Origin: Pseudomonadales bacterium
Lineage (GTDB): Bacteria; Patescibacteriota; Microgenomatia; UBA1400; PJMF01
DNA length: 64,000 nucleotides
Assembly (NCBI GenBank): GCA_020632235.1
Contig: JACKFY010000002.1
Span: 96,894-160,893 of the forward strand
Direction of reading: 5' to 3'
The position numbers and the translations under genes were made by a program. This document shows positions 21,447-44,952 of the stretch, piece after piece. Position 1 is the first letter of the stretch; every line of letters begins with the position of its first letter. The notes under the pieces were generated by a model. The model made no database searches. It saw nothing but the letters and a program-made list of their open reading frames with translations, and was not told where the DNA came from.

Positions 21447-21959
21447 CGCCTTTTACTATTTTTTACCTAGTATAGTAATATTTTTTCAGAATTTGGTTTC
21501 TATTTTTCTCTTGGCTTCATACAAATCTCTTTTTACTTAGTATATTTGGGTAGATGCGGTATGAAGCAGTCATCTATTTTTAATGAGGTATATCTATATC
21601 TATATAGCACGAACATATGGTTTGCAGTAATGTTGCACCAGGCTTTGCAGTAATATATCGGTGATGGTGCGGTAATAAAAATAAGGCATTTTTGCAGTTT
21701 TTTGCAAACAGAAAAAAGAGTTATAGCTGCGAATAAAACACAAATATACTTCTTTTTTTACTCAGTATGTTACCTTACACATACATTCGTGTATTATTTG
21801 TGTTTTGTGTACAACATCGAAATGAGTACAATTTATTTTTTACTATACTTTTAGATGAAGTACTGTTATAGAGACTCAACTATAAAAGTCACAAAGTATT
21901 TCTTTTGACTCTTTTGTTGAAACAATTTTGCGCATTACTGTGTGAAAAGAAGTATTGAA

Positions 21960-22216
21960 GACGAAAATGGAGCGTTTGAGAGGTGTTTAGTCTGGACCCC
22001 TCACCATTCTCTGGTGAGGGTTTCCCGCCTGTCACCCACCCTGTCACTTCGACTAGCCCTATCTGTCATGTCGACCGTGAGTGGAGACATCTGCTACGAC
22101 TGTCCGTCAGGTGACGGATTAGCGGGCAGGTCCCCTTATGAAGAGGAATGTAAACCCATCTGTCCCGACTTAAGTCGGGACGTCTTCCCTTACAAGGGAA
22201 GCGCTAAATACCGCAC
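21960..22216. repeat. mosaic intergenic repeat, copy C (multi-module); the 120-aa track ORF 21942..22304 lies inside it and is probably not coding
   Basis: contains cccgcctgtcacccaccctgtcacttcgac (cf. 35177-35204 and 7287-7296), gtaaacccatctgtcccgacttaagtcgggac and cttcccttacaagggaag (cf. copies A, B, E). Confidence 0.55.
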
Positions 22217-24214: not shown

Positions 24215-24234
24215 CTAGTAGAAGATAGCCGTTT

Positions 24235-25278: not shown

Positions 25279-25301
25279 TACGTATTCCTTTCTTGAGTTT
25301 T

Positions 25302-26741: not shown

Positions 26742-26852
26742 AAATAAGACTTTGTTTAAATTTTAGTACGTACAACCAAAATACTAGATAGATTTTGAGT
26801 GACACGCAAGTACTAAAAATTAGGTGGAGTGATGAGGAGTATGTTTTTAGGC

Positions 26853-27785
26853 TTAGTACTCGGTTGATGTTGTGGGCTGCTTTTGCTTCTTGTAGGTAAA
26901 AATTAAGATGCAGATGATGCATGTAGCTACAAAGAGCAGTGAGAAGGGAGCGGCAATAACGATGTATTCGGCGCTGTGTGTTTGTCCAGAAGGGTTTGAC
27001 ACGAGTAATGTTTGTACGCTGTACACTCCAAATAGAGGTGGAGAAACCACCATTTTTTGCATGGGTTTTGTTTCCTCCGAGAGGGGTTCGTCAGTAAAAA
27101 ACCGCAGCGGTCTACCACTGAAAGCAAGCGCAGCGTCTGGATAGATGTTGTAATGACCAATAGTGCTACCTCTCCAGTTTGTAATTTCTGCTGCGCCAGA
27201 TGCTTCTTGGGTGAGTGAGGCTGTGTTAGTAAGCCACCCTGAAGTCTCGATAGCTTGAAATGTGTCTACCACTTTTGGCAGGTGCAGGTGCGCCTCTAGT
27301 GCTGGCAGCACCTCTCCATCATCAATAGAAATAATAATGTTGCTGCCGATGACATTTTGTACTCTGGGTGCCCCAGAGGCTTCTGAGTCTGTTTGAAATA
27401 ACACAGTCAAATGGTACTCATTTTGTGCAGCCGCTTGATCAACAGTTATGGGAATCGTAATAACTCTTGACTCTGTTGGTGTAAGAGAGATGGGCTCTGT
27501 AAATGATGTGCTAGAAAAGTAGGGAAAGCTCGTGTGATCAGATAGAATGGGTTGTCCTGTTTTATCGCTTGCTGTAAAGTCTACTGCTGCTGGGGTGATG
27601 ATAAGCTCGGTCAAGCTATTGTTTGTGATGATTATCTCAACTGCGCGCGATTCTCCTGGATTTAGAGCGATATATTGAACAGGAGGGGAAACAGTAAGCG
27701 AGCTGTTAGCCTTCACTTCACTGTTTGGTTGGATAAGGAACAACCCCAGTGCGAGACAGAAAGAAAAACAGAGCTTTTTGATCAT
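26853..27785 (-). CDS. DUF916/DUF3324-like cell-surface protein (paralog of 24235..25278), C-terminal TM anchor
   Basis: start taken at MIKKLCFSFCLALGLFLIQP (track ORF extends to 27854, overlapping upstream gene); SLTVSPPVQYIALNPGESRAVEIIITNNSLTELIITP; C-terminal VIAAPFSLLFVATCIICILIFTYKKQKQ. Confidence 0.5.
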   Translation of the reverse strand: MIKKLCFSFCLALGLFLIQPNSEVKANSSLTVSPPVQYIALNPGESRAVEIIITNNSLTELIITPAAVDFTASDKTGQPILSDHTSFPYFSSTSFTEPISLTPTESRVITIPITVDQAAAQNEYHLTVLFQTDSEASGAPRVQNVIGSNIIISIDDGEVLPALEAHLHLPKVVDTFQAIETSGWLTNTASLTQEASGAAEITNWRGSTIGHYNIYPDAALAFSGRPLRFFTDEPLSEETKPMQKMVVSPPLFGVYSVQTLLVSNPSGQTHSAEYIVIAAPFSLLFVATCIICILIFTYKKQKQPTTSTEY

Positions 27786-27789
27786 AGTA

Positions 27790-28533
27790 TTAGTACCCCG
27801 GCACTGCTGTGTAGATAATACCCGTTTCGTACTCGCCTGCCGTTTCACTACCAAACATCCCTGCTTTGTAGGTAACAGTAGACTGTCTATCGCTCACTAC
27901 ACCAGTACCACTCATGACAACTTGTGCTGGTTCTGCTACTGCCTGATTGGCAAATGGCCGAAAGTGCGAGAGCGTACTAAAGTCTGCAGGTATATCTTGG
28001 CCTGACATGTTGTAGCCAAACCCCCCAATATTTTGATTGTTCCAGACTTTTGCCTCCGAGATGGTGCACGCCCCAGCATCGCAGGTTGTGTTGGGAATGG
28101 TTTGGCTGGGAGTAGTGGTGTGTTCGAGAGGGTGGAGCTCGCGCGCGTAGACTGTGTATCCACCAGCGCCTTTGGTTGAGACAGTTAGAGTGTGGGAGTC
28201 TGTGTTGTGTGTGCCTGCAGTGAGTGTTCCAAAATCAATAGCTGTCTTGGAAATAGTGAACGTAAATTCCTGAAGTGGATAGATGTACTGAAACCCACTA
28301 CCCACAAAGTATGAGTCGCTACCGTACTGTCCAAATGGCCCGGCTGCAGTTTGACCAACAGTATCGGTGACTTTGTAGTTGCTACTCGACTTTTCTCCAG
28401 AAGTAATATTAAAGTTGCCAAACTGGATTTTATACGAACTAGATTCTAGATTGTCCGCCTGGATTGGCATAGCACACACCATGAATGGTATGAGCATGAG
28501 TACTATTGTTCGTGCATATTGTTTTCTATTCAT
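27790..28533 (-). CDS. small secreted WxL-like domain protein (Tyr-variant terminal motif)
   Basis: signal MNRKQYARTIVLMLIPFMVCAMPIQA; C-terminal VWNNQNIGGFGYNMSG...TAGEYETGIIYTAVPGY-end homologous to C-terminus of 25302..26741. Confidence 0.5.
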   Translation of the reverse strand: MNRKQYARTIVLMLIPFMVCAMPIQADNLESSSYKIQFGNFNITSGEKSSSNYKVTDTVGQTAAGPFGQYGSDSYFVGSGFQYIYPLQEFTFTISKTAIDFGTLTAGTHNTDSHTLTVSTKGAGGYTVYARELHPLEHTTTPSQTIPNTTCDAGACTISEAKVWNNQNIGGFGYNMSGQDIPADFSTLSHFRPFANQAVAEPAQVVMSGTGVVSDRQSTVTYKAGMFGSETAGEYETGIIYTAVPGY

Positions 28534-29201
28534 AGAGATTGCTCTTGCTTTTCTACTTCGCTGATGACGAGTGAGAGCTGTGTTTTCATTTCGTCTCTGG
28601 TTATTTCTTCATCGGTAATCATTTTTTCTAGGGTGGCCAACTTTGGCATGATGTATTGCTCTACAAACACCACCTCTTTATTTTTTGCATCTTCTCCATT
28701 TTGGGCACGTTGTTCTTCCATTATTGCCTTGTGAGCATGTGTTACTGCACGCTCATGTTCTCTTTTGGTAAATAAAAACAGAATGAAAAGAAGCGGGAGT
28801 AAGAGTAGTGGGGCGAAGTCAAGTAGCGTGTTGATGGGGTGTTGGGTGAGTAGGAGTAATCCAGCGCCGAGTACGGCGATGAGTCCAGGCAAAAGGGGAA
28901 CAAAAAATGCCACTAAAAAGGTGAAGCTAGTCAAAAGGAGGCTTAAAAGTGATGGATAGTCTTTCAGCGAGCTTAAAGCAATAAGCATGATGACCACCAA
29001 ACACAACATCTCAAACGGTCCATAAGACACAGCACTTTTTGATTTTCGCTGCCGAAACTTCATCAAAACGACACACACAGATCCCACCGCAATTAACTGT
29101 GGTGAGTAGCTGGCTAGCGTGGCATGCATAGACCAGATATATGCGCCCAACACCACACAGGTCATGAAGATGGCGTACTTGGCAGATGACATAGTACACA
29201 T
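28530..29201 (-). CDS. hypothetical membrane protein with cytoplasmic coiled-coil C-terminus; heads the surface-protein gene string
   Basis: 4-5 hydrophobic helices (LIAVGSVCVVLM, LCLVVIMLIALSSL, FLVAFFVPLLPGLIAVLGAGLLLL..), C-terminal charged heptad-like region. Confidence 0.45.
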   Translation of the reverse strand: MCTMSSAKYAIFMTCVVLGAYIWSMHATLASYSPQLIAVGSVCVVLMKFRQRKSKSAVSYGPFEMLCLVVIMLIALSSLKDYPSLLSLLLTSFTFLVAFFVPLLPGLIAVLGAGLLLLTQHPINTLLDFAPLLLLPLLFILFLFTKREHERAVTHAHKAIMEEQRAQNGEDAKNKEVVFVEQYIMPKLATLEKMITDEEITRDEMKTQLSLVISEVEKQEQSL

Positions 29202-29217
29202 GATACACTATCTTGCT

Positions 29218-32200
29218 ATGAAACACTCGTATGACCCAGCAACACTAGAGAAGAGATGGCAGAAATTCTGGGAAGAGCAGCAGTTGTTTCAAGACACAGC
29301 GATAGTGCCGGAGGGGAAAAAGAAAGAGTACTTGTTGTTTGCCTTTGCCTACCCCTCAGGCTCTGGTTTACATGTGGGTCATGTTGAGAGTAAAGCCGCG
29401 CTTGATATCTTGGCGCGTTACTACCGAATGCAGGGAAAGCATGTATTTTTCCCGGTGGGGTGGGATGCGTTTGGCTTGCCGGCAGAAAACTATGCTATTA
29501 AGACAGGGGTGCATCCTGCCCAAACGACTGATGACGCCATTACTACCTTTCAAAAGCAGATCAAGAGAATTGGCATTTCGTATGACTGGAAAAATGAGCT
29601 TCGCACCAGTGACCCCACCTACTATCGCTGGACGCAGTGGATATTCTTAGAGCTTTTCAAAGCAGGTCTCGCCTATAAAAAATCAGCACCAGTCAACTGG
29701 TGCCCGTCATGCAACACCGTGCTGGCCAACGAGCAGGTAGTAAATGGTGAGTGTGAACGCTGTGGTGCTAGTGTTATTCAAAAAGAGATGAATCAATGGT
29801 TTTTTAAGATCACCCAGTATCAAGACGAGCTTATTTCTGGACTCGATCAGGTGGACTGGCCAGCACCAACCAAGCAACAACAACTCAACTGGATAGGCAA
29901 GAGTGAGGGGCTTTCCATCAGTTTTCCCTTGATGACTGCACCCACTAACCACTCCTGTAGTACAAATAGTTTATATGACCACCCATATCAACACACACTA
30001 CAAATTGCTCGAGATTTTTACTTGAGCTACTTGCAGGGCAAGCAGGTTTTTTCTCCTCTTTTAGATGATGTTGTGTTGCTCACCCGATCGTTTTGGAACC
30101 ACTTACTAGAAAAAGATAGAAAACAATCACAAGTATTGTTTCGTTTGTACGCCTTGCCCAAAGTGTACAATCTGCTTTCTGTTGCTGAGGGGACGCTACA
30201 ATACTCGAAAGGAAATGACACAAAAAAACATGTGGAGTTTTGGAGTTGGCAAGCAGAAATTGAAGGGGTGAGAGTAGGAGTAACGGTTCGGAGTGTTAAT
30301 AACACCCACAAACACTTGTATTCAATAACCTGGCTTAGTGAAACGGAAAACTTTTCTAATAAACAAAAAACCGCGCCGTCTCCAGCAGATCAGAGTCTGC
30401 TGCGTCAGGATTGTAAAAACAGTGTCCTTCAGCGCGATAATTTCGTTAATCATACCACGATAATGGAGTATTTGTCAATGTTGTTATCAAAGACTCCTAT
30501 TATAACTCTTAAAGCCTGGACCAAGTTTTGGGAAACAGTGTATGGTGTTACATTTCTTGTTATTGCCCCAGAAACGTTTGAACAGCTTGGGTTGTCTGAG
30601 TATCTTGCGCAAGATCTCCAGCAAAAAGTAGCTGACTACATCAACACAGCAAAGAATAAAACAGAGGAAGAGCGAGCTGTTGATGAAAAGAACAAGACGG
30701 GTGTGGACACTGGTTTGAAGGCTCAAAACCCAGTGACGGGGGAATTTATCCCGCTCTTTATAGCAGACTATGTACTTGAGGGGGTTGGTACAGGAGTAGT
30801 CATGGGCGTGCCTGCCCACGACCAAAGAGACTTTGCCTTTGCCAAAAAGTACAACTTGCCGATCAAGCAAGTAGTATCGTACGCAGACAAAGCTTTAAAT
30901 ATTCAAGTAAAAAACGGCGAGCGAGCAGCCGAGCAAGAAGGAATCCTGATAAACTCTGGCCAGTTTGATGGTCAAGAAGCCTGGGGCGAGGGCAAACAAA
31001 ACATGGCAGACTGGCTGGTAAAAGAAGGGCGTGCAGAGTGGAATACTACCTACAAACTTCGTGACTGGCTCATTTCCAGACAGCGCTATTGGGGTACGCC
31101 CATCCCGATTGTGTACGATCCAGACGGGAAGCCTCACCCGGTGAAAGAAGAGCACTTGCCTTGGACGCTTCCCACCGACGTTGATTTTAAGCCTACCGGT
31201 GAGTCTCCGCTGCGGTCTTCGCGCGAACTACAAGCGCGAGTCGAGCGGTTGTATGGTACAGGTTGGGTACCAGAATATGACACAATGGACACATTTGTGG
31301 ACTCAAGTTGGTACTATCTTCGGTATACATCTATTGATGACAACACACACGCATTTGATGCAAAAAAGGTTCAATCTCTGCTTCCTGTTGATTTGTACAT
31401 GATTGGCCCCGAGCACATCGTGCTTCACTTGCTCTACTCACGGTTTTTTACCAAGTTTTTACGCGATCAAGGTTTGTTAGATTTTGATGAGCCGTTTGTA
31501 AAGATGCGCCATCAAGGCATGATCTTGGGTCCTGATGGCAAAAAGATGAGTAAAAGCAAAGGTAACGTTATCAATCCCGACGACGTGGTAGACAAGTTTG
31601 GCGCCGACACCCTGCGTATGTACGAGATGTTTATGGGGCCGATAGACGCTGACAAACCATGGAGCACTACCTCGGTAGCTGGCGTGTATCGTTTCTTGAG
31701 CAGGTATAACTCGCTGGTGCGACAGGCGTTAGATTACAACTCCAGCACTAGCACAAAAAAGACACTGCCCAGCTCTTCCTTACAAAAAAAATTACACCAG
31801 GTAGGACTAAAAGTTTCGAGTGATATCCCCGAGATGCGGTTTAATACTGCTATTGCTGCCTTGATGGAGTTGGTTAATGAATGGCAAACAGAGGGGCAAG
31901 AGTTGTCACTCGGCGATACTGTGCGAGCAGCACTACTGATTGCGCCATTTGCGCCATTTTTAGCAGAAGAGCTCTACAGTCTATTACCAGCAGGACAAAG
32001 AAAGTGCAAGAGTGTGCACCTCGAAGATTGGCCAGAGTTCTCGCCAGAGCTAGCAAAAGAAGATGCTGTTATTATAGCAGCGCAGGTCAATGGCAAAGTA
32101 CGATCAGAGCTACTGGTCGATAGCTCTGCGATAGACAATCAAACTCTTATAGAAGAAAAAGCTCTAATGGATACAAAAGTTACCCATTGGATTGATGGCA

Positions 32201-32274
32201 AAACAGTTTTAAAAGTTATTTACGTACCAGGTAAAATCATTAATTTTGTACTCAATACAAATGAGGGGGCGTAG
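29218..32274 (+). CDS. leuS: leucine--tRNA ligase with ~195-aa lineage-specific insertion between catalytic core and CP1 editing domain
   Basis: start set at MKHSYDPATLEKRWQ (track ORF starts 29119); HIGH motif GLHVGHVESKAALD, KMSKS motif KMSKSKGNVI, CP1 remnants TFLVIAPE and GTGVVMGVPAHDQRDF; total ~1018 aa. Confidence 0.9.
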   Translation: MKHSYDPATLEKRWQKFWEEQQLFQDTAIVPEGKKKEYLLFAFAYPSGSGLHVGHVESKAALDILARYYRMQGKHVFFPVGWDAFGLPAENYAIKTGVHPAQTTDDAITTFQKQIKRIGISYDWKNELRTSDPTYYRWTQWIFLELFKAGLAYKKSAPVNWCPSCNTVLANEQVVNGECERCGASVIQKEMNQWFFKITQYQDELISGLDQVDWPAPTKQQQLNWIGKSEGLSISFPLMTAPTNHSCSTNSLYDHPYQHTLQIARDFYLSYLQGKQVFSPLLDDVVLLTRSFWNHLLEKDRKQSQVLFRLYALPKVYNLLSVAEGTLQYSKGNDTKKHVEFWSWQAEIEGVRVGVTVRSVNNTHKHLYSITWLSETENFSNKQKTAPSPADQSLLRQDCKNSVLQRDNFVNHTTIMEYLSMLLSKTPIITLKAWTKFWETVYGVTFLVIAPETFEQLGLSEYLAQDLQQKVADYINTAKNKTEEERAVDEKNKTGVDTGLKAQNPVTGEFIPLFIADYVLEGVGTGVVMGVPAHDQRDFAFAKKYNLPIKQVVSYADKALNIQVKNGERAAEQEGILINSGQFDGQEAWGEGKQNMADWLVKEGRAEWNTTYKLRDWLISRQRYWGTPIPIVYDPDGKPHPVKEEHLPWTLPTDVDFKPTGESPLRSSRELQARVERLYGTGWVPEYDTMDTFVDSSWYYLRYTSIDDNTHAFDAKKVQSLLPVDLYMIGPEHIVLHLLYSRFFTKFLRDQGLLDFDEPFVKMRHQGMILGPDGKKMSKSKGNVINPDDVVDKFGADTLRMYEMFMGPIDADKPWSTTSVAGVYRFLSRYNSLVRQALDYNSSTSTKKTLPSSSLQKKLHQVGLKVSSDIPEMRFNTAIAALMELVNEWQTEGQELSLGDTVRAALLIAPFAPFLAEELYSLLPAGQRKCKSVHLEDWPEFSPELAKEDAVIIAAQVNGKVRSELLVDSSAIDNQTLIEEKALMDTKVTHWIDGKTVLKVIYVPGKIINFVLNTNEGA

Positions 32275-32376
32275 CTCCATCTTCTCTGTGGGTGATAATT
32301 GACTATCATTGCTTTACTCGTACTGCTTAAGATGTAGTTGCGTTGTAGTTAGATTCCCCTCTATCATAGATAGTGC

Positions 32377-35151
32377 ATGCCACCCACCACACAAGAAAAG
32401 AGACGAGAGGGAAGTGTGTCTCGTACGCTCAAGCGTCTTGTTGGTGTACTTCTGTTTCTCATCGCTACCATCATCATTGTCATCTGGATTCTGTGCTGCC
32501 TTGGTTTGCGGTGTGTTTCTGCTGGCGGAGTGTTAGGATCACTTTTTTCTTTAACGGGCAATACTACTGTTAAAACTTCTACCACTGACCATAGAGCTGG
32601 CGTAACTTCATCTGTTCGCCCTACACACTCTCCGACTACTGCAACTTCTCCTTTTCCAACTACCCCATCATTGGTAATTGAAAATACTGACTCTAAAACA
32701 AGGCAAGAAGAGAGCAGACAGGCAGGAGGCGACACGTTTATTACTCAGTACTATTACCCGATTACTAAGCTGGGAGACACCCTCATAACCAAAGTGATAG
32801 AAGTGACCGAGACTATTACTGCGCCTAATATTGTTTATTCATTACTAGCAGGTGATGGCATTCACATTTCTGATACTCAAAGCCCCACCATTACTAATAC
32901 TGGCGTAACTTCTCTTCAGGGAAGCACGGGGGATATAGTGCTCTCGGCAGGAAGTGGTATTTCTATAGATGGGACCACTATTTCTGCTACTGCATATGGC
33001 GGTACGCCTGCGGAGTATCAACAGGCCACTGGTTTTACAAATGATGGCAGTGTTACACGACTTACAGATACCACCGACCTAGTAGGAATAGGAACGCTTA
33101 CTCCTGCATACAAGCTTGATGTCCAGGCGGGAACAGGCATTGTTGGCCAGTTTTCCGGCCGTGTTATAGGTGGTGATGCAGTAAGCAGCAATGAGTTTGC
33201 TACCCTCTCACAAGTGCAAGCTGCTAGTAACAATACATACATGCTTGATGGAAATAGTTTTGGCACACTTGCTACGCTTGGTACTAATGATAGCTATGAC
33301 CTAGCATTTGAAACAGCTGGGTTCGAAAAGATGAGGATTCTTCAGAACGGAAATGTAGGAATAGGTACTACTTCACCAGGATACAAGCTGGAACTAGCAG
33401 GCACTTCTTCAATAGAAGATAGAACAATTGGCATTAACGGTACTCCTGTAGTGTACTTGCCAGATCAAAATGATTTTACTGGCTCACTGATTGTGGGTAA
33501 TGGAGGTGCTAATCTGGCAACAAATACATATGAAGGAAAATATAATACGTATGTTGGAATAAATTCAGGCCTTTCTAACACTTTGGGAGATTTTAATACT
33601 GGCGTAGGAGCTGGTTCTCTCAGGAACCTTACAACTGGATTTAATAATGCTGTTTTAGGTACTAATGCGATGCAGAACGCAGTTTCTGCTGCCAAGAATA
33701 CGGTGCTAGGCGTTGCTGCTTTAGAAGTAGGTGATGCTGGTACCAATAATACTGTGGCTGGTTACTTGGGGGCGCGGTATGTAAATGGAAATAATAATGT
33801 TTCTCTTGGTTCATATAGTTTGTATCTGCCAACAGGCGTTACAAGTGACAACACAGTAGTCGGAGCATACGCAGGCAGAGGTGCGGGCAGCGGAGCAAGT
33901 GCTGATTTAGTAGGTAATACCTTATTGGGTTATCGGTCTGGATATGCATTGCGAACGGGTGGAAACGACAATACACTTTTAGGAAATAGAGCCGGAGAAA
34001 ATATTACCAGTGGTGCGCGAAATATTGTAATTGGCTACGATCTGAATGCTCCTGCAGCCACTGGCTCCAATCAATTAAACATCGGTAATCTTATTTTCGG
34101 AACTGGTGTGGATGGAATAAATGATACACTTTCTTCTGGCAATGTCGGCATCGGCACGACCACCCCTAACGCCAAGCTCGATGTCAACGGCCTCATCCTT
34201 GCCCAATCTTTGGGTAGTGCGCCTGCGGGGGTAAGTGGCCATGCAGGGATCTTTGCCCAAGACGTATCGGGAAGTAGCGAGCTGTTTGCCCTAGACGCAG
34301 CAGGAAATACGACACAGCTATCACCCCACAACCCAGCAACTGGTACTTGGTGGTTTAATTCTAGCAACACTATTACGGGTGAAAGTTTGCTTGTAGATAT
34401 GGAAGGTCTTATTAAACAGACTGACCTGCTCCTTGGAGGAGGCTACATTACTGAAAACGGTACTACTACCAGTAGCTCTACTAACTACCTGACTTCCACT
34501 CAAGCCAACACTACTCAGCTAGCAGCGCTCTCTGATACAGTGGCAGCGGTCGATCTCGACCAATATTTAGAGAAAACAACCCTAGAGAACAACGTGACTT
34601 TGACCCAGTCACTGACAAAATTTGTGAAGAAGGTGGTGTTTGCTGCCCAGGTGACGTTCCAACAATCAGTTTCATTTATGAGATCAGTGACATTTGATGG
34701 AGTAGCAACATTCTATGAAGCACCAGTGTTGAGTGACAATATGGCTGGGCAAGCGACTATCCTTTCTGGCAGCACTAGGGTAGAGGTGGCGTTTAGCACT
34801 TCGTTTAGTAGTACACCTGTAGTAACCGTTACTCCTCATGCATTCACTGATGGGCAGTACAGAATTACCCAGCAGAGCACAACAGGCTTTGTCATAGAGC
34901 TCTCGCAACCTCAAGGTGGTGACACCGTCTTTAGTTGGCAGGCGTTGCAAGTTTCTCAGGTTGGGCAGGCACAGTCATCAGGGTCACCTTTACCAACTCC
35001 GATACCTTCACCAGACCCAAGTTCTCCTAGCGTCGACCCGACGCCTTCACCCACTCCAGAGCCAAGCGTTACTCCGTTATCTAGTCCATCACCCACTCCA
35101 GAACCGAGTGTGAGTCCCTCGCCTAGTCCTGAGGCGTCTCCTGGTCCGTAG
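32377..35151 (+). CDS. 924-aa signal-anchored surface protein with phage tail-fibre-like repeats (paralog of the giant protein repeat region) and Pro/Ser/Thr-rich C-terminal tail
   Basis: N-terminal TM LVGVLLFLIATIIIVIWILCCLGL; DGNSFGTLATLGTNDSYDLAFETAGFEKMRILQNGNVGIGTTSPGYKLELAG and GNVGIGTTTPNAKLDVNG match repeats in 14301..20243; C-terminus PTPIPSPDPSSPSVDPTPSPTPEPSVTPLSSPSPTPEPSVSPSPSPEASPGP. Confidence 0.7.
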   Translation: MPPTTQEKRREGSVSRTLKRLVGVLLFLIATIIIVIWILCCLGLRCVSAGGVLGSLFSLTGNTTVKTSTTDHRAGVTSSVRPTHSPTTATSPFPTTPSLVIENTDSKTRQEESRQAGGDTFITQYYYPITKLGDTLITKVIEVTETITAPNIVYSLLAGDGIHISDTQSPTITNTGVTSLQGSTGDIVLSAGSGISIDGTTISATAYGGTPAEYQQATGFTNDGSVTRLTDTTDLVGIGTLTPAYKLDVQAGTGIVGQFSGRVIGGDAVSSNEFATLSQVQAASNNTYMLDGNSFGTLATLGTNDSYDLAFETAGFEKMRILQNGNVGIGTTSPGYKLELAGTSSIEDRTIGINGTPVVYLPDQNDFTGSLIVGNGGANLATNTYEGKYNTYVGINSGLSNTLGDFNTGVGAGSLRNLTTGFNNAVLGTNAMQNAVSAAKNTVLGVAALEVGDAGTNNTVAGYLGARYVNGNNNVSLGSYSLYLPTGVTSDNTVVGAYAGRGAGSGASADLVGNTLLGYRSGYALRTGGNDNTLLGNRAGENITSGARNIVIGYDLNAPAATGSNQLNIGNLIFGTGVDGINDTLSSGNVGIGTTTPNAKLDVNGLILAQSLGSAPAGVSGHAGIFAQDVSGSSELFALDAAGNTTQLSPHNPATGTWWFNSSNTITGESLLVDMEGLIKQTDLLLGGGYITENGTTTSSSTNYLTSTQANTTQLAALSDTVAAVDLDQYLEKTTLENNVTLTQSLTKFVKKVVFAAQVTFQQSVSFMRSVTFDGVATFYEAPVLSDNMAGQATILSGSTRVEVAFSTSFSSTPVVTVTPHAFTDGQYRITQQSTTGFVIELSQPQGGDTVFSWQALQVSQVGQAQSSGSPLPTPIPSPDPSSPSVDPTPSPTPEPSVTPLSSPSPTPEPSVSPSPSPEASPGP

Positions 35152-35159
35152 CACTCCTT

Positions 35160-35290
35160 CCGCTCGCACTTCTGCCTTGTCACCCAACCTGTCATCTCGA
35201 CCGCAAGTGGAGAGATCTTTGTGAGATTTCTTCCCCCCCCCACTTTGTTCCAGTGGATATGACAACGTAAGCTTTCTGTAAGGTACTGCG
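35160..35290. repeat. mosaic intergenic repeat, copy D (partial)
   Basis: gccttgtcacccaacctgtcatctcgaccgcaagtggagagatct aligns with 22027-22090 of copy C. Confidence 0.4.
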
Positions 35291-35305
35291 CGTATACTCA
35301 CGCCT

Positions 35306-35947
35306 ATGTTTGAGGAAGCTCGTCATAGGTTGACTTTTTCTTCTTTTTCTAAAGGTACAATATTGTCACTAATTAGTACCATTTTTGGAATATGTTTGGC
35401 TTTCTATGGTATATATATGGTCTATTCTGATGCCAATACTCCACAACCAGTATTTTCCAGCTTTGACCAACTGGAGCCAGAAGTAGTCGTGATTGATGTT
35501 TCAGGAGCAGTTGTGCACCCTGGGGTTATTGAAGTACTTTCAAACCAAAGAGTTGCAACGGCAATTGAAAAAGCAGGCGGGTTTCACACAGAGGCGGATG
35601 AGGCATACATCCAAAGTACGCTCAACTTAGCCAGAGTGGTGAGTGATGGTGAGAAAATATATGTGCCGTTTGAGGGGGAGTTGGCAGCTCAGCAAGCTCT
35701 TGTTGCCGCTCAGGTGGCAGATGACCCCCTGAATAGCTTTGCAGTCAATAGCTCTTCTACTACGACAGGGGGTATTTCCCTCAATACTGCGACTGCTAGT
35801 GAACTCATGGAGCTAAAAGGTATTGGCGAGAAACGTGCTGAAGATATTATTGCTGGTCGGCCATACAGCACTGTGGATGAGCTATTAAAGCAAAGCATTA
35901 TTTCTGAATCACTGTTCAATAGCATCCAATCAGAATTAGTATTATAG
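35306..35947 (+). CDS. comEA: competence protein ComEA (SLBB domain plus helix-hairpin-helix DNA-binding domain)
   Basis: N-terminal TM; SLBB VVVIDVSGAVVHPGVIEV..RVATAIEKAGG; HhH ISLNTATASELMELKGIGEKRAEDIIAGRPYSTVDEL. Confidence 0.85.
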   Translation: MFEEARHRLTFSSFSKGTILSLISTIFGICLAFYGIYMVYSDANTPQPVFSSFDQLEPEVVVIDVSGAVVHPGVIEVLSNQRVATAIEKAGGFHTEADEAYIQSTLNLARVVSDGEKIYVPFEGELAAQQALVAAQVADDPLNSFAVNSSSTTTGGISLNTATASELMELKGIGEKRAEDIIAGRPYSTVDELLKQSIISESLFNSIQSELVL

Positions 35948-36083
35948 AGACGAAGCTATTGGACGTAGTAGAGCCGTATTACAGTTATATGAAGACACTT
36001 TGTAAATAAAAAAGGACTGATGTACCTATGGTAGGAAGAAAGCCTTTGCTAGCTTATTGAAGGGTAGTTCTCATCTGTATTGA

Positions 36084-37484
36084 TTGGGGAAAAGTATGAA
36101 GACAAAATCACCAATACAGTATGGTCATTTGATTCTCTTACTACTACTTATATTTTTGTGTGTATCTCGCGTATTATATTTTTATGCAAAAAAAGCCAAA
36201 CAACCTGGTAGTTCGGAACTTGTTCACTCGGTTATCATGCGAGAAGAACCCAAATACTGCAGTGTGTATGGATTAGAGTATATATATTATGTACCGAACT
36301 GTTGGCAGTACGCAGATGGCAAGAGGTATGCAGTAATACTCAAGACAGTTGAAGACAAACGTACTCAAAGCAGTACAGTTAGCAGTCAAGGTGGTCGGTT
36401 TGATAGTGGCATTTTTCAGCGTAAAAAGGCTGACGTAATCAGCATTGATAGGTATGACTACTCTCCATTTTCATTAGCAGATTACTATAGGTACTTTGAG
36501 GAAATATGGTCTCGTGTGCTTGCCGGTCTTTCACGAACATTTGCGCGCCTTGCTCCGGCTGATACCAACTGGATGACGCAGGCAGCGTTGTTTGGTTTTA
36601 CTACTCAAATGCCAGAAGATGTGCAACAGTCGCTAAAAATACTTGGTATACAGCACATGATTGCTGTTTCAGGATATCATATTAGCTTTTTTGTGTTGCT
36701 GTTTTCTCCGTTACTTACCCGATTTTTCCAGAGAAAACAGCTTATTTTTATCATCACTTTTTTCACTATAGGGTACTGGATGATGATAGGGTTAGTTCCA
36801 TCTGTTGATAGGGCAGTGCTGAGTGCGGTTATAGCACTGTGTTTAAAAAAAGCCGTTTTTCGGCAGGTTGATGCGGTCCGCCTCTGTATAGTAGTTGGGT
36901 GTATTTGGGTGTTTCTGCGTCCGGCAGTGATAGCATCGCTTTCATTTCAGCTTTCGTACCTGGCCACTCTTGGCATCTGTTTATTTTCTCGCTTGCAGCG
37001 AGAGTACTCTATTGCCAGCGCGCTTGAAACCATGGATGTGGGAGAAGAGCAGGTTTCGTTTCACCTCTTTACAGTACTAAAAGAAAGTTTTCTTGTTTCT
37101 CTGGTTGCGCAGCTATGGACGCTGCCTGTGCTGTGGTACACGTTTCAAGAGTATCCATTGGTATCACTTGCGGCCAACACTGTGTTGTTTTGGCTTTCTC
37201 CATTGATGATAGTAACGAGTTTGTATGTCTACGGAGTATTTTTTGTTGGATTACTGTCGTTTTCTACTGCATCAATACTAAGTTTTATGCTGATTCAGCC
37301 AACAAAATTTGCATCAGAAGGGATTTCATATTTGCTATCGATAAGTAGGTATTATCAAGATACAATCCTGTCGCTGCCTGATGTGACGCTGCCGTTTGTT
37401 GCTGGATACTATGGCGTGTTACTGATACTTTTTACAGTGTTGCCACACTATGTTTTGAGACGAGCAAAGGCATGGCATGCGTAA
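36084..37484 (+). CDS. comEC: ComEC/Rec2 N-terminal part (DUF4131-like plus competence membrane domain)
   Basis: polytopic; competence-domain signature GIQHMIAVSGYHISFFVLL; stop overlaps the next ORF start (ATGCGTAA). Confidence 0.7.
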   Translation: MGKSMKTKSPIQYGHLILLLLLIFLCVSRVLYFYAKKAKQPGSSELVHSVIMREEPKYCSVYGLEYIYYVPNCWQYADGKRYAVILKTVEDKRTQSSTVSSQGGRFDSGIFQRKKADVISIDRYDYSPFSLADYYRYFEEIWSRVLAGLSRTFARLAPADTNWMTQAALFGFTTQMPEDVQQSLKILGIQHMIAVSGYHISFFVLLFSPLLTRFFQRKQLIFIITFFTIGYWMMIGLVPSVDRAVLSAVIALCLKKAVFRQVDAVRLCIVVGCIWVFLRPAVIASLSFQLSYLATLGICLFSRLQREYSIASALETMDVGEEQVSFHLFTVLKESFLVSLVAQLWTLPVLWYTFQEYPLVSLAANTVLFWLSPLMIVTSLYVYGVFFVGLLSFSTASILSFMLIQPTKFASEGISYLLSISRYYQDTILSLPDVTLPFVAGYYGVLLILFTVLPHYVLRRAKAWHA

Positions 37485-38391
37485 CGTAGCACTAGCGTTA
37501 TGTTGTGTGGTTGTGCTGATGAGTGTTGTCGTCACCTTGTTCCAATTTCCTGATCAAAACCTGTATGTGACAACCTGTGATGTGGGCCAAGGGGATGGAA
37601 TTTTAATACAAAAAGGCTACACACAGGTTATTATTGACACAGGCAATGATGCTTACAAGTTGTTCTCATGTCTTGATCAGTTTATGCCTAGAGGTGATAG
37701 GGTGGTAGAGTTACTGGTGATTACCCATCCAGACCTTGATCACTACGGGGTAGCCCGCTCATTACTTGATAGATACCAGGTACAAACACTTTTTACGCTG
37801 CCGTACGCAAAAGATGACGAAGAGTTTGATGCTTTTGTAGCAGCAGTTCGTGCTGAAGAGTCTACAGGAATGCGGGTCCTTTTCCCCGAGAAAACACCCC
37901 GATCATTTCTCTTTTCTGGCGTTGCACTGCGCCAGCTATGGCCAAGAATAGCACCTCATTATGCCAAAGCAAAAAGTACTCATAGCAGCAATGATGCCGA
38001 AGGAGATGACCCACGATTTTTTGCTACAACCGAAGATGTAAATGACCAGTCTATAGTGTTTCTTCTTGAGTATGGAGATTTTTCAGCGCTTTTCACAGGA
38101 GATCTGGAGGCAACAGGAGAACTAGCGCTTGTAGTGAGTGATGTGCTAATAGATGTTGATGTGTTAAAAGTAGGGCATCACGGCTCAAAAACCAGCACAA
38201 CAGAGAGTTTTTTGCACAACACACGCCCCGAAATCGCCGTAATTAGCGCGGGTCGTGACAATACATACGGTCACCCCGCATCGGAAACGCTAGAGCGACT
38301 GCATAACTATGCTGTTGCAGAAATTGTGCGAACTGATAGCGAGGGCACCATTACTATTGGTATAAACAAAACAGCATATTGGATAGAGTAA
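37477..38391 (+). CDS. comEC: ComEC/Rec2 C-terminal metallo-beta-lactamase domain encoded as a separate ORF
   Basis: TCDVGQGDGILIQ and ITHPDLDHYGV (HxHxDH-type) motifs, VGHHGSKTSTT; 8-nt overlap with upstream ORF. Confidence 0.7.
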   Translation: MRNVALALCCVVVLMSVVVTLFQFPDQNLYVTTCDVGQGDGILIQKGYTQVIIDTGNDAYKLFSCLDQFMPRGDRVVELLVITHPDLDHYGVARSLLDRYQVQTLFTLPYAKDDEEFDAFVAAVRAEESTGMRVLFPEKTPRSFLFSGVALRQLWPRIAPHYAKAKSTHSSNDAEGDDPRFFATTEDVNDQSIVFLLEYGDFSALFTGDLEATGELALVVSDVLIDVDVLKVGHHGSKTSTTESFLHNTRPEIAVISAGRDNTYGHPASETLERLHNYAVAEIVRTDSEGTITIGINKTAYWIE

Positions 38392-38779
38392 TGCGGTTCG
38401 GTGTGTATTCGCTCTCGGACAATACTGCAAATATATTTTGATCGTACACGAACGTGAAAGTGTACGCAAGTAGCACATGTGCTGTGTTTTTGATTTTTAT
38501 ACGAATAAGTATTTTTTTGAGTATATATTGACGGCATGAAGTACGTATTTTATTAAAAGAAACAAAAACCAAAAAGAATACAATAAATACTCAACTTTGT
38601 TTGTGTTTTATACGGTCTATGAGTATTGATTAGTCAAGTAGAAAGAAGATACTTTGTACTAGAAAGTTTGCTTGACTGCATATGGTGTTGCGCGAACGTC
38701 AATATAAGATATAAAGTAGTACTATTTGAACACAAAGTGTTCTAGCGTAGTTTTTTGGTAGCTGGTATACTTGCGGGTG

Positions 38780-40090
38780 ATGTCACTTGCACCACACACC
38801 ACAACACTACCCACAGGCCTTACACTCATCACTATTCCCATGGAGTCGGTGCGCTCTGTTACAACTATGGCGATGGTAAACACCGGCTCGCGATATGAAG
38901 ATGAGAGCAGGGCGGGCATCGCCCACTTTTTAGAGCACATGGTGTTTAAAGGAACCAAGCAGTACCCTGACGCACAAACCATTGCCCGCAGCGTTGATGC
39001 TATTGGGGGTGAGAGTAATGCATTTACTTCCAAAGAATACACGGGTTACTACGTGACTGCTGCCAGCCAACACATACAAACAGCAGTGAGCATAGTTTCA
39101 GACCAGATGTTGCAACCACTGTTTCGTCAAGAGGATATAGATCGTGAAAGTGGGGTGATTATAGAGGAGATCAACATGTACGCAGACACCCCAGCCCGCC
39201 AAGTAGGTGTGCAGTTTGAGTCACTCCTGTATGCTGGCGGCCTCAAGCGAGACGTACTTGGGACAAAGGAAACAGTTGCATCTCTTACTACGGCAGACTT
39301 TCAAGCTTTCATGAACGAGTGGTATGGGCAGGAAAATATGGTATTGGTGCTTGCTGGTGATAGTACTGTAGTAGATCATAGCGATACCCTTGCATATGTT
39401 ACTGAATGCTTTGATATAGAAAGTAACAGAAGTGGAAAAAAAGACGTACGCTCTGGTATGAAAACGACACCATTTACCTTTGACTTACTTTCCGTTCAGC
39501 ACAAAGATACCGAACAAGCACATCTGGTGTTGGGCTGGCCGCAGGAGGGCAGGCATGCTGGCAACAAACATGCGCGTATTTTGGTTGCCACTATTCTTGG
39601 TGGAACGATGAGCTCTCGGTTGTTCTCGGAAGTGCGTGAAAAACGAGGGCTGTGCTACTACGTGCACAGCGATAGTGATGTGTACCACGATAGTGGGAGC
39701 ATGGGTGCCTCGGCTGGGGTTGATCCAACCCGCATTCATGAGGCGCTAGAGGTTATTACGAGTGAATTCGCTGCCACTGCAGATGGAAGTAAGCCGTTGA
39801 CAACAGAAGAACTAGAAACAGCGAAAGCTTATATTTCTGGCAGCACAACGTTGCGTATGGAGAGCAGTAAAAGTGTGGCCCAACACTTTGGGCTGAGGCG
39901 GATTTTGGAAGACAGCGACGAAACAGTAGAAGAGACGCTTGAGAAAATCAATGCGGTGAGCTTAAAACAGGTAAACGAGTTGTGTGCAAAACTGTTTCAG
40001 CCAGGCGCAATGCGCCTGGCAGTTATTGGTCCGTACAAAGACGAGGATGAGTTTAGGAAGTATACTAATCTTACCAAGACACACTTATAA
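38780..40090 (+). CDS. M16 family (insulinase/pitrilysin-like) zinc peptidase
   Basis: inverted zinc motif HFLEHMVFKGT; ATG 38780 preferred over track TTG 38771. Confidence 0.85.
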   Translation: MSLAPHTTTLPTGLTLITIPMESVRSVTTMAMVNTGSRYEDESRAGIAHFLEHMVFKGTKQYPDAQTIARSVDAIGGESNAFTSKEYTGYYVTAASQHIQTAVSIVSDQMLQPLFRQEDIDRESGVIIEEINMYADTPARQVGVQFESLLYAGGLKRDVLGTKETVASLTTADFQAFMNEWYGQENMVLVLAGDSTVVDHSDTLAYVTECFDIESNRSGKKDVRSGMKTTPFTFDLLSVQHKDTEQAHLVLGWPQEGRHAGNKHARILVATILGGTMSSRLFSEVREKRGLCYYVHSDSDVYHDSGSMGASAGVDPTRIHEALEVITSEFAATADGSKPLTTEELETAKAYISGSTTLRMESSKSVAQHFGLRRILEDSDETVEETLEKINAVSLKQVNELCAKLFQPGAMRLAVIGPYKDEDEFRKYTNLTKTHL

Positions 40091-40108
40091 AGTAACACTA
40101 GGAACACT

Positions 40109-40582
40109 ATGCCTAATACACGAACAGCAGTATTGGTAAAGCCAGATGGCTTGCAGCGAGGTTTGATCGGTGAGATCATCACTCGTTTTGAGAGAAAGGG
40201 GTTAAAGTTGGTTGGCCTGAAAATGCTTGATATGACAGACGAACAGCTTTCTGAGTGGTACGCCGAGCACAAAGAAAAAAACTTCTTTGATGATCTCAAG
40301 TCATTCATGGGCTCAAAACCTATTGTAGCTATGGTGTGGCAAGGTATCGATGCGGTGCCTGTGGTGCGCAAGTTGGTTGGCACCACTTTGGGTAGAGAGG
40401 CCGAGGCGGGCTCCATTCGCGGTGATTTTGGCATGAGCCAGCAGTATAACTTGATCCATGCATCCGCTAACAACGATGATGCTGTGAGAGAAGTTGCTAT
40501 AGTTTTTAGCGAGAACGAGTTATTTGACTACCAAACAGTTATGGAAGGCGTGATCTACGCTGATTATGAGATGGGCTCGTAG
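40109..40582 (+). CDS. ndk: nucleoside-diphosphate kinase
   Basis: NTRTAVLVKPDGLQRGLIGEIITRFERKGLKLVGLKM, active-site region NLIHASAN. Confidence 0.9.
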   Translation: MPNTRTAVLVKPDGLQRGLIGEIITRFERKGLKLVGLKMLDMTDEQLSEWYAEHKEKNFFDDLKSFMGSKPIVAMVWQGIDAVPVVRKLVGTTLGREAEAGSIRGDFGMSQQYNLIHASANNDDAVREVAIVFSENELFDYQTVMEGVIYADYEMGS

Positions 40583-40590
40583 CGCTTGGC

Positions 40591-41016
40591 TCAAGAGAGA
40601 AGAGCGAGCAGTTCTTTTGGGGTGTGTGCTGTGACGGTGTCTATTTTTTGAAAGTCTTTGCCATACGTGCATAGCAAGCAGTTTTTTGGTACCTGGAGGG
40701 CGATGATGCAGTCGGCCAGTTTGATCTTGGTTTTTTTGTGCAGCTTGATAGCATCTGTAATGTTTGTTTTCTCGATAAGAGTAAGATGTTGGAGATTAAA
40801 AATATTTTCTAAAAAAAGAAGAGCACGATCTTTTTTAAGCCTGTATGTTTTTGTAAGCACATAGTACACCTCAAGGCACACAGCGCTTGACGTATGGGGA
40901 ATAATATATTTTTGCTCACTTAGAGTAAAAAGAGTTTGACATTCAGTATACTGTTGCTCATTATCCCTCAAGTAATACCGAAGAAACGTATTGGTATCAA
41001 AAAAAACCGAATACAT
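40591..41016 (-). CDS. vapC: PIN-domain ribonuclease toxin (VapC-like)
   Basis: N-terminal FFDTNTFLRYYL PIN signature, 141 aa, 2 nt downstream of antitoxin ORF. Confidence 0.7.
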   Translation of the reverse strand: MYSVFFDTNTFLRYYLRDNEQQYTECQTLFTLSEQKYIIPHTSSAVCLEVYYVLTKTYRLKKDRALLFLENIFNLQHLTLIEKTNITDAIKLHKKTKIKLADCIIALQVPKNCLLCTYGKDFQKIDTVTAHTPKELLALLS

Positions 41017-41018
41017 GT

Positions 41019-41261
41019 TTATAAATCTGAGTAATCTATGTAGTCTCGAATATTATCGATATCAATATTTGGGTTTTTTTTATGATATTTGTTTAAGGCA
41101 CCACCCAACTCAAGGAATCTACTCTTAGTTGGCTTTAACACCAATGAGTTATCTTTAACCGTTGCTTCAAAAAGAGTGGGTGCATCAATCCCCATTGATT
41201 TTCTAATCTGCTCGGGAATATAGACTTGCCAAGATCGAGTCATGTTTATTGTTGTTTGCAT
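41019..41261 (-). CDS. vapB: AbrB/MazE/SpoVT-type antitoxin (VapB-like)
   Basis: start placed at MQTTINMTRSWQVYIPEQIRKSMGIDAP (swapped-hairpin beta-barrel pattern); track ORF extends to 41327 through the tRNA remnant. Confidence 0.6.
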   Translation of the reverse strand: MQTTINMTRSWQVYIPEQIRKSMGIDAPTLFEATVKDNSLVLKPTKSRFLELGGALNKYHKKNPNIDIDNIRDYIDYSDL

Positions 41262-41348
41262 ACCAATACTGATTATACAACAATAATGATATAAACGTGC
41301 CCCCGCTAGAAATCCTTGCCTGCGCAAGCAGGGAACCTAGATGTAACG

Positions 41349-41420
41349 TGCCCCCGCTAGGAATCGAACCTAGATTTAAGGTTTAGGAAACCTCCGTTCT
41401 ATCCATTGAACTACGGGAGC
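41349..41420 (-). tRNA. tRNA-Arg (anticodon CCT)
   Basis: manual fold of reverse complement: acceptor GCTCCCG/CGGGGGC, D-arm GTTC-AATGGAT-GAAC, anticodon stem GAGGT/ACCTT loop TTCCTAA (CCT), T-arm CTAGG-TTCGATT-CCTAG, discriminator A; no encoded CCA. Confidence 0.85.
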
Positions 41421-42530
41421 TACTGTTTGTGTGCTATTATACCAGGTGTGAAGCAGTCATACCCAGCAGTGAAAAATATCGCCAGCGGCTCATCGTTGCT
41501 CAGACCTGACGGCACTTCGTTTTGGCAGTTTCTCAAAAAAGAAAAAATTGCCTATCAAAAAGACCACTTTCCATTTTTGACCGCTCATAAAATCCCAAGA
41601 TTAAAAGAAGTGTATGACTTTGAGGCGTTTATGGCGCTACAGTCACGCGGCCAGGCTTTGGCCTATCTGTACCAGGGTTTTGGAAGGTCTCTTGACTACG
41701 TGGGTCCCGTACTTGATAGTGAACTAGAGCATGGCTTTAATGATCACACCGACAGGCACACCTTGTGGGTGAGTCAAGTAGTAGCAGAGCTCTTGCATCG
41801 TTCTGGAAAAAGCTACCTGGGAAAGAAAGACTACAATGAAAAAACAGAAGTGCTTGCTACTTTGGTAGGTATGACGCATGACATTGGTAACTTTGTGAGT
41901 AGAAAAGAGCACTCCACCTATAGTGCGTGGATGTTAGGAAAGCTGTTTGGTAATACCTATAGCGATGTAAAAGCCTGGGAGGCGGTAGAGTACAGTATAT
42001 TGTTTCATGAAGAGCCGGTGTTGGTGCAGCAGGGCGTGCATCTCTCGGACGGTATCCCACTACAGTGGGCGCTTGTTTTGGCCGACAAAATGCATGTGGG
42101 CAGAGATAGAATTGGTGGGCGATCGGTGGAATCTGGGGTCAAAAAACGGGCGTTTGATAAAGATGTGCATATTTTGCTTAATGCACTTATTGTGCGCTCG
42201 ACGTGGTACTTTGAAGTCAATACATTTGTATGGCATCTTGATTTTAGTGTTGACCAGTTGGGCGAAAAGTTTGCCTCGTTTAGCAAGGGCAACAAACGTC
42301 TGTGGTTGCCGCGGTTTTTTCAAAAGCATTTCTTGAAAAAGGGGACGATCTATAGAGAGTCGTTTGCCAAGCTCTTTTCTGATGTGTATGGTGATCGCAT
42401 GAGTATGGCTGCCGAGTCTGCATTTTTACTCTTTCCCTACATCAACACGTTCAAAGTACGTCTGGTAGACAACGACACCAGGCAAAAGGTGGGGAGCGGT
42501 GAAATGGTAGTGTGGGAGAAGAAGCGGTAG
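41406..42530 (+). CDS. HD-domain phosphohydrolase family protein
   Basis: HD motif region MTHDIGNFVSRKEHSTYSAW and upstream H..H; track start 41406 overlaps the opposite-strand tRNA by 15 nt, true start may be downstream. Confidence 0.55.
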   Translation: MNYGSYCLCAIIPGVKQSYPAVKNIASGSSLLRPDGTSFWQFLKKEKIAYQKDHFPFLTAHKIPRLKEVYDFEAFMALQSRGQALAYLYQGFGRSLDYVGPVLDSELEHGFNDHTDRHTLWVSQVVAELLHRSGKSYLGKKDYNEKTEVLATLVGMTHDIGNFVSRKEHSTYSAWMLGKLFGNTYSDVKAWEAVEYSILFHEEPVLVQQGVHLSDGIPLQWALVLADKMHVGRDRIGGRSVESGVKKRAFDKDVHILLNALIVRSTWYFEVNTFVWHLDFSVDQLGEKFASFSKGNKRLWLPRFFQKHFLKKGTIYRESFAKLFSDVYGDRMSMAAESAFLLFPYINTFKVRLVDNDTRQKVGSGEMVVWEKKR

Positions 42531-42533
42531 TGG

Positions 42534-43874: not shown

Positions 43875-43927
43875 TGTTGTATAGTATAGCAAGATGTGAG
43901 AAGTATGAGCAAGCAAGTGGTATTCCT

Positions 43928-44950: not shown

Positions 44951-44952
44951 TA

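Follow-up and report, generated by a model that had tools for sequence, protein, structure and literature searches.

The stretch of DNA analysed here, referred to as the window, is 64,000 nucleotides (nt) of contig JACKFY010000002.1 (assembly GCA_020632235.1), from a Patescibacteria genome deposited under the name Pseudomonadales bacterium. It carries the gene fib924, which encodes a mosaic surface-fibre protein of 924 amino acids (aa) and directly precedes comEA and comEC, two genes for DNA uptake. It seems likely that fib924 is a cell-surface fibre adhesin of a bacterium of the candidate phyla radiation (CPR), and that its adjacency to the com genes reflects the insertion of a modular fibre gene in a variable junction. 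Among comparable genomes the adjacency is unique to the lineage of the window, and the link between adhesion and DNA uptake that a first-pass annotation had drawn from it does not hold up. The genes at the junction are as follows.

29218-32274, + strand: leuS (identified with Pfam); to judge from relatives, the ancestral upstream neighbour of comEA
32377-35151, + strand: fib924, the 924-aa mosaic surface-fibre gene, from the listing of open reading frames (ORFs)
35306-35947, + strand: comEA, with a transmembrane (TM) segment, SLBB and helix-hairpin-helix domains (Pfam SLBB and HHH_3; NCBIfam comEA)
36084-38391, + strand: comEC as two ORFs with an 8-nt overlap, one with the Competence domain (36084-37484) and one with the metallo-beta-lactamase domain (37477-38391)

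The placement of the fibre gene directly 5' of comEA and comEC on the same strand, as first annotated, was confirmed, with 154 bp between fib924 and comEA and 136 bp between comEA and comEC; the range given there for the fibre, 32377-35947, spans two genes, fib924 and comEA, rather than the fibre gene alone.

Gene order at the leuS-comEA junction

Synteny was examined from both sides. For the com genes an alignment-based scan, with one genome kept per species, gave 80 comEC loci of other genomes with 10-kb flanks, a scan of genome contigs with the single ComEC protein having returned no relatives. For the fibre, an alignment of the 54-aa module described below found 80 metagenomic loci (647 kb) that encode this module, to which the contexts of seven fibre homologues (P0001, P0002, P0003, P0005, P0032, P0038 and P0053) were added. 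A hidden Markov model (HMM) of ComEC served as positive control and gave 80 matches among the ORFs of these comEC loci.

A fibre gene lies at the leuS-comEA/comEC junction in none of the 80 comEC loci, among them 15 Patescibacteria loci that have leuS and comEC on one strand. A fibre motif occurs within 10 kb in two of the 80, in neither case adjacent or on the same strand, one being on the opposite strand beyond leuS and the other 7 kb downstream, again on the opposite strand. Nor are comEA or comEC found in the seven homologue contexts, or matches to the ComEC HMM and ComEA in the 80 metagenomic fibre loci (0/87 together). The conserved association that marks a component of a com locus is not seen for fib924, and these counts lend no support to the proposal that cell contact and DNA uptake are coupled.

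Of the 15 Patescibacteria loci comEA was detected in nine, usually with an M16 peptidase gene and ndk downstream, and the next com gene follows leuS within 1.3 kb in 12. In the relatives L006, L011 and L067 comEA starts 0-42 bp after leuS. The closest relative, L006, in which LeuRS and the M16 peptidase are both 52% identical to those of the window, has comEA straight after leuS with a gap of 42 bp, and its comEA overlaps comEC; the full order is obg, a tetratricopeptide repeat (TPR) gene, 1.2 kb, leuS, comEA, comEC, argS and M16, argS thus sitting between comEC and M16. The interval from the TPR gene to leuS, at 5633-6811 in L006, is ~15 kb in the window (13777-29217), and the extra ~15 kb holds a giant fibre gene, a 253-aa ORF and a block of Pam-like pilus genes, whose products are secreted proteins and to which we return below. 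L020 retains nearly all of the window's order, with a giant-fibre-like fragment, two homologues of genes in the Pam-like block, leuS, comEA, comEC, M16, ndk, PEGA and mreB, but where the window has fib924 it has just two small ORFs.

Because the orders in L006 and L020 are kept without fib924, the leuS-comEA junction can be regarded as a variable spot in a conserved backbone. The conserved synteny that the first-pass annotation had asked for in relatives is therefore missing, and the adjacency of fib924 to comEA has the look of an insertion specific to this lineage, not of a tie in function. The insertion would not be recent, since the composition of fib924 matches that of its neighbours and no scar is visible: the GC content at third codon positions (GC3) is 0.36 in fib924 and 0.355 in comEA, and a search for flanking direct repeats around fib924 found none, only internal motif repeats and a duplication in the tail. 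Recent horizontal transfer of fib924 was rejected on the same match in GC3.

Two of the neighbouring genes deserve a remark of their own. The split of comEC into a Competence ORF and a metallo-beta-lactamase ORF recurs in L006, L010, L011, L020, L023, L038 and L067, and as the same split is kept in these Patescibacteria relatives it is a feature of the lineage, a frameshift artefact being rejected. For leuS the listed ORF is 29119-32274 (+), with a probable true start at Met34 (nt 29218); the alignment of the window LeuRS to that of L006 begins at aa 35, and with the Met34 start the overlap with the upstream minus-strand ORF disappears. The window LeuRS also has an insertion of ~190 aa (aa 283-471) just ahead of the editing domain, which gave no domain match and is absent from the 832-aa enzyme of L006.

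Modular organisation of fib924

Taken as a whole protein fib924 has no Pfam domain. Its regions, all on the + strand, are defined by composition, repeats, homologues and an AlphaFold2 (AF2) model with its per-residue confidence (pLDDT).

32437-32511, + strand: single N-terminal TM helix, aa ~21-45 (Kyte-Doolittle, AF2)
32527-32751, + strand: Thr/Ser-rich low-complexity linker, aa 51-125 (T 22%, S 13%; pLDDT < 50)
32752-33237, + strand: proximal shaft, aa 126-287, with the first capping loop LVGIGTLTPAYKLDV (nt 33082-33119; repeat family D1)
33238-33399, + strand: conserved ~54-aa module DGNSFGTLATLGTND...GNVGIGTTSPGYKLEL, common to the giant protein and holding the second capping loop
33472-34131, + strand: about ten 16-18-aa 'N-T-x-x-G' repeats, aa 366-585, forming a YadA-head-like left-handed beta-roll
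34132-34191, + strand: third capping loop SGNVGIGTTTPNAKLDVNGL, also the junction to a different shaft in a sister assembly
34213-34461, + strand: unnamed ~75-aa module, aa ~613-695, '...DVSGSSELFALDAAGNTTQLSPHNPATGTWWF...VDMEGL...GGGYITE'
34732-34956, + strand: H-type-lectin-like beta-sandwich tip, aa 786-860 (PF09458, AF2, Foldseek)
34963-35148, + strand: Pro/Ser-rich C-terminal tail, aa 863-924 (P 35%, S 27% in the last 62 residues)

The N-terminal helix is the sole hydrophobic segment of the protein, with a Kyte-Doolittle 19-residue maximum of 3.28 at aa 24, and AF2 places a helix at aa 13-41 (block-mean pLDDT 60-83). As it comes after a Lys/Arg-rich N-tail, the sequence suggests a membrane anchor in the N-in/C-out orientation, and the Thr/Ser-rich linker that follows is presumably a wall-spanning spacer. 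Among the best 120 homologues listed, to which the counts out of 120 given here refer, none aligns to aa 1-120.

The three capping-loop copies, LVGIGTLTPAYKL, NVGIGTTSPGYKL and NVGIGTTTPNAKL, have the form 'VGIGTTxPxxKL' and fit V-G-G/N-pi-x-x-P-x-x-x-L, the capping-loop consensus of the mosaic adhesive trimer (MAT) fibres of Bdellovibrio, known in S74 and non-S74 (NS74) forms (PMC10769870). Of the strict motif G.VGIG...P...L the window has four copies, two in fib924 and two in the giant fibre gene, and a third, looser copy is found in fib924 at 33082. The ~54-aa module is modelled with a pLDDT of 74-90 and aligns to the Bd3182 fibre 8ojn.

In all 903 homologues were found at E <= 1e-3, many of them carrying PF13884 and some named 'tail fiber domain-containing protein'. 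A conserved core of fib924, aa ~220-610, is common to ~100 of the 120, and the tip to only 3-19; the proteins that share the core are mostly ~1000-1600 aa long, and the few with taxon labels are from Patescibacteria, Elusimicrobia and Bacteriovoracaceae. P0003 is collinear with fib924 over aa 134-906 at 30% identity, the proximal shaft being collinear from aa 134 onwards. Genes for DUF8128/TraG proteins adjoin P0001 and P0003; they resemble the gene at 3243-5414 (-) in the window, which encodes a type IV secretion coupling protein similar to VirD4/TraG (TrwB_AAD_bind, TraG-D_C).

The second fibre gene of the window is listed here.

14301-20243, - strand: giant 1980-aa S74-type fibre paralogue, which shares the ~54-aa module with fib924

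The first-pass annotation had noticed that the two proteins use the same repeat vocabulary, and pairwise alignment agrees (BLASTP, E = 3e-20). The near-collinearity that it described is true of one conserved module, fib924 aa 288-341 against giant aa 605-658 (66% identical), and of the capping loops; it does not extend to long collinearity, the relation over aa 288-605 being looser at 33% identity. In DNA the shared module is just 69% identical over 133 nt, which points to old paralogy and on which a recent duplication of fib924 from the giant gene was rejected. As the module is present in 75 of the 120 homologues listed (E < 1e-8), it is family-wide rather than private to this pair. The giant protein has its Peptidase_S74 domain at aa 1363-1411, with a further ~570 aa beyond it. 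It starts with a cytoplasmic Phage_int_SAM_1 domain of the integrase N-terminal, DNA-binding type (aa 120-196), an unusual fusion; a hydrophobic stretch near aa 340-360, picked out by eye, probably spans the membrane, and the fibre comes after it.

Two modules make up the C-terminal third of fib924. Pfam found no PF13884 (Peptidase_S74) in fib924, even at E <= 5 on pieces including the C-terminal third, in agreement with the absence of an S74 block reported earlier, and no SDxxxK motif stands at the position aligned to SDQRLK in P0003, which has a genuine S74 domain where fib924 has the unnamed ~75-aa module. As this different module fills the S74 position, autoproteolytic maturation of fib924 is not expected. 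The module is strongly conserved (consensus ...YAxDVSSSSELFAxDEAGNxTQLSPHNPxTGEWxFYSxNxKTG...VxMExL...GGxFxEE) and found no match in Pfam, in PHROG or, by tblastn, in the INPHARED phage genomes. An exhaustive HMMER search with the C-terminal query found 1751 cluster representatives at E <= 1e-3; in many of the 150 best matches this module is the only part matched, often C-terminally, and many proteins, of 76 aa to over 2000 aa, end in it. Apart from this very protein in a sister assembly, a word-indexed search with the C-terminal 261 aa recovered nothing.

The tip is modelled by AF2 as a beta-sandwich with a pLDDT of 75-88. PF09458 is matched by all four aligned tip segments of homologues (best E 1.9e-7), and Foldseek relates the tip to the C-domain of the LKA1 tailspike gp49, Helix agglutinins, SLL-2, the R2 pyocin fibre and discoidin II, with target-normalised TM-scores of 0.56-0.59, E-values of 6e-3 to 1e-2 and a probability of 1.00 against 4q56, 2ce6 and 3wmp. 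The model has the H-type lectin fold, a six-stranded beta-sandwich like that of Helix pomatia agglutinin; searching PDB sequences with a profile of the tip gave nothing meaningful. Beyond it the Pro/Ser-rich tail, noted in the first annotation as PT/PS-rich, includes a 42-nt tandem duplication (repeat D2, 35044-35127), and P0003 too has a Pro-rich tail. Both C-terminal modules of fib924, the unnamed one and the tip, also occur independently in other proteins.

A glimpse of how such modules may be exchanged comes from a sister contig, JAGQLT010000010.1 (GCA_020429115.1; L005), which is 99.95% identical to window positions 34135-47484. The two sequences part immediately upstream of nt 34135 (L005 1-760 against window 34135-34194): the first 700 nt of L005 encode, in frame, a different fibre shaft, and its join to the C-terminal part that both have in common falls precisely on SGNVGIGTTTPNAKLDVNGL. 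Either the two strains truly differ by a swapped module or the assembly has formed a chimera through a repeat; fibre genes may swap modules at the capping-loop motif. The called genes of this near-identical contig also supplied the domain names for two genes at 40591-41420 (-) that adjoin tRNA-Arg(CCT), one for a PIN-domain toxin and, upstream of it, a small one for a MazE-like antitoxin.

Public taxon labels look unreliable for this group. The fragment of fib924 in the sister assembly is labelled Candidatus Woesebacteria, proteins of one genome are given both as 'Pseudomonadales bacterium' and as 'Candidatus Woesebacteria bacterium' (P0121, P0127), and the syntenic relatives, L006, L010 and L020 among them, are recorded as Pseudomonadales, Gammaproteobacteria, Clostridia and Nanoarchaeia. 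An exact look-up of the fib924 protein in the assembly collection found no record.

Surface-appendage neighbours and alternative explanations

Five co-oriented ORFs at 22217-28533 (-) are likely to be a divergent Pam-type pilus cluster, a CPR system of chaperone-usher-like kind. The 247-aa protein at 27790-28533 matches NCBIfam CPR_pilus_PamT (E 3.9e-11; 42.8 bits against a cut-off of 240), a 479-aa protein of the block has a weak match to the Pam pilin C-domain model (E 0.008), and homologues of the block lie directly upstream of leuS/comEA in L020 and L010. According to a 2026 preprint on the Pam pilus, the pam operons of CPR genomes are consistently accompanied by a tail-fibre-like protein and by ATP synthase genes, and in agreement with it both P0032 and P0038 adjoin ATP synthase operons, P0032 being flanked by transposase genes as well. 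From the Pam-like block and the preprint it follows that the fibre genes of the window fit a surface-appendage neighbourhood better than a competence locus, and more plausibly belong to the former.

It would be a further step to propose that fib924, the giant S74 fibre and the Pam-like pilus make up one host-attachment apparatus in which leuS is merely embedded, and we consider this unlikely. The PamT and pilin C-domain matches, the Pam-like homologues immediately upstream of leuS/comEA in two relatives, the pam-linked fibre of the preprint and the distance of only 3.8 kb between fib924 and the cluster are all in its favour. However, the Pam matches are far below curated cut-offs, L020 and L010 have Pam-like genes and no equivalent of fib924 at the junction, and the fibre protein of the preprint could equally be the giant one.

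A functional coupling of fib924 to ComEA and ComEC, in which the fibre binds a cell and the co-expressed machinery imports DNA released at contact, we regard as distinctly improbable. On the shared strand 154 bp separate fib924 from comEA, and no intrinsic terminator is predicted between them (the intergenic fold has z = -0.97); scans of the same interval for consensus promoters and terminators gave nothing above shuffled background, and an Rfam scan of 31500-39000 found no RNA family. The gap of only 0-42 bp between leuS and comEA in L006, L011 and L067 suggests that read-through is normal at this junction, and competence genes of Patescibacteria are conserved and functional (PMC10633639). 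Against this stand the absence of synteny in both directions, a closest relative in which comEA comes straight after leuS, and the use by known Com systems of type IV pili rather than fibres of this kind. A variant would be a lineage-specific, recently wired co-transcription that has attachment and DNA import expressed together and is invisible to tests of synteny; it is just as improbable.

It has also to be asked whether fib924 is the remnant of a prophage or tailocin, in which case its product would be the tail fibre of a virion and not an adhesin of the cell. Weak PHROG matches to a tail spike and a virion structural protein, tblastn matches at 30-35% identity to genes for tail fibres in Pelagibacter and Synechococcus phages, and a tip whose fold is like tailspike and pyocin-fibre domains could be taken this way. 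An N-terminal TM anchor would be unexpected in a virion fibre, though, and the surroundings are not those of a phage gene: the neighbours are leuS, comEA and comEC, and the vicinity lacks genes for phage structural proteins, integrase or lysis. A scan of IMG/VR with the single fib924 protein found no close relative and the composition matches that of host genes, so that very little weight is given to this explanation. We give as little to a structural envelope or surface-layer-like protein, or an enzyme such as a depolymerase, on a beta-helix scaffold: matches of such kind reflect the generic beta-roll fold at 4-10% identity, as opposed to 13-23% for adhesin heads, an ice-binding protein being the exception with 31% over 111 residues; neither Pfam nor NCBIfam finds a catalytic domain, and the lectin-like tip argues for binding.

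For a surface adhesin a mechanism can be sketched. The N-terminal helix would hold fib924 in the cytoplasmic membrane and the Thr/Ser-rich linker would carry it through the wall. The shaft would be made of modules bounded by 'VGIGTTxPxxKL' capping loops, as in MAT and S74 phage fibres, together with the YadA-head-like beta-roll; with the non-proteolytic ~75-aa module in the place of the S74 chaperone nothing would be cleaved off, and the distal H-lectin-like beta-sandwich would most likely bind a glycan, or some other ligand, at the surface of a host or partner cell. On this scheme we infer that fib924 forms trimers, is exposed at the surface, binds glycan and takes part in host attachment. 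At the level of the genome, a modular and frequently exchanged fibre gene would have been inserted in a variable junction of the backbone leuS-comEA-comEC-M16-ndk, beside a surface-appendage island of the giant fibre and Pam-like pilus genes.

Several points weigh against this interpretation. Surface exposure, trimerisation and the ligand are matters of inference. The AF2 model was run as a monomer and is confident only at aa ~300-610 and 786-860, the Foldseek E-values are marginal both for MAT fibres (0.05-0.7) and for the tip (4e-3 to 2e-2), and the match of the tip itself to PF09458 (E 0.0018, 18.8 bits) is below the 24-bit Pfam cut-off. As regards the junction, the native-like composition of fib924 speaks against a recent insertion, and fib924 and comEA, being co-oriented with no terminator predicted, may be co-transcribed. 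Furthermore the lineage is thinly sampled: the one near-identical ComEC belongs to the same species, and as the nearest ComEC beyond it is just 27-28% identical the 'relatives' compared are distant ones.

Comparison with known fibres, adhesins and lectins

Whatever the reason for its position, fib924 is a member of the known NS74, MAT-like or tail-fibre-like surface fibres, and a clear example of the modular fibres common to Patescibacteria, Bdellovibrio and phages, with a combination of its own: a TM anchor, a YadA-like head, an unnamed module of terminal type and an H-lectin-like tip. Adhesins are essential in episymbiotic ultrasmall bacteria (PMC10633639), and fibres such as this are reasonable candidates for host recognition in them. 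The locus is also an example of fibre genes taking up variable junctions within a backbone that is otherwise conserved; in compact genomes a fibre gene close to a housekeeping or competence gene does not amount to a functional linkage unless synteny supports it.

The description of fib924 as an adhesin resembling phage receptor-binding proteins, made in the first-pass annotation, is supported by these comparisons, through matches to MAT fibres in PDB and Foldseek and a tip like H-type lectins and tailspike or pyocin-fibre domains. Among PDB sequences Bd3182 and Bd2133 match best, the capping loops of fib924 aligning to chains of both, and for the AF2 model Foldseek places Bdellovibrio fibres in all of the first 14 ranks, over short stretches. 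The closest system is the MAT NS74 subgroup of Bdellovibrio bacteriovorus (Bd2133, Bd1334 and Bd2439; Caulton et al. 2024, PMC10769870), with which fib924 shares a surface fibre of ~1000 aa, repeated capping loops and a variable lectin-like C-terminal tip, here H-lectin-like and free of PF13884. In both cases an S74 domain is lacking and an S74-bearing paralogue is found in the same genome. There are also differences. MAT fibres have a signal peptide and a conserved ~130-aa beta-rich N-terminal domain, whereas fib924 has a TM helix and a Thr/Ser linker and, from its sequence, probably no such domain. The MAT host is a diderm predator, whereas that of fib924 is a Patescibacteria bacterium, presumed to be without an outer membrane. 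Neither the YadA-like head, nor the unnamed module, nor an H-lectin-type tip is among the six solved MAT tips, and the similarity to MAT fibres is confined to short stretches of 37-84 aligned columns.

The same shaft modules and capping loops are found in S74 phage tail fibres, in endosialidases and in CPR 'tail fiber domain-containing proteins' such as P0003, P0032 and the giant protein of the window. The likeness of P0003 to fib924 includes the H-lectin-like end and the Pro-rich tail, but S74 is present in P0003 and not in fib924. The beta-roll resembles the YadA-like heads of the trimeric autotransporter adhesins YadA, UspA1, BpaC and BoaA. However, fib924 has no match to Pfam YadA_head and no C-terminal beta-barrel anchor, and since it is anchored N-terminally by a TM helix it is not an autotransporter.

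Finally, the tip can be set beside the H-type lectins, namely the Helix pomatia and Helix aspersa agglutinins, discoidin II and SLL-2, and the tip of CofB from enterotoxigenic Escherichia coli, all with a beta-sandwich of ~75 aa and six to eight strands. H-type lectins are homotrimers that bind their ligand at the interfaces between protomers (PMC6048534), which suits the end of a three-fold fibre. CofB shows that domains of the H-lectin type can bind peptides rather than sugars.

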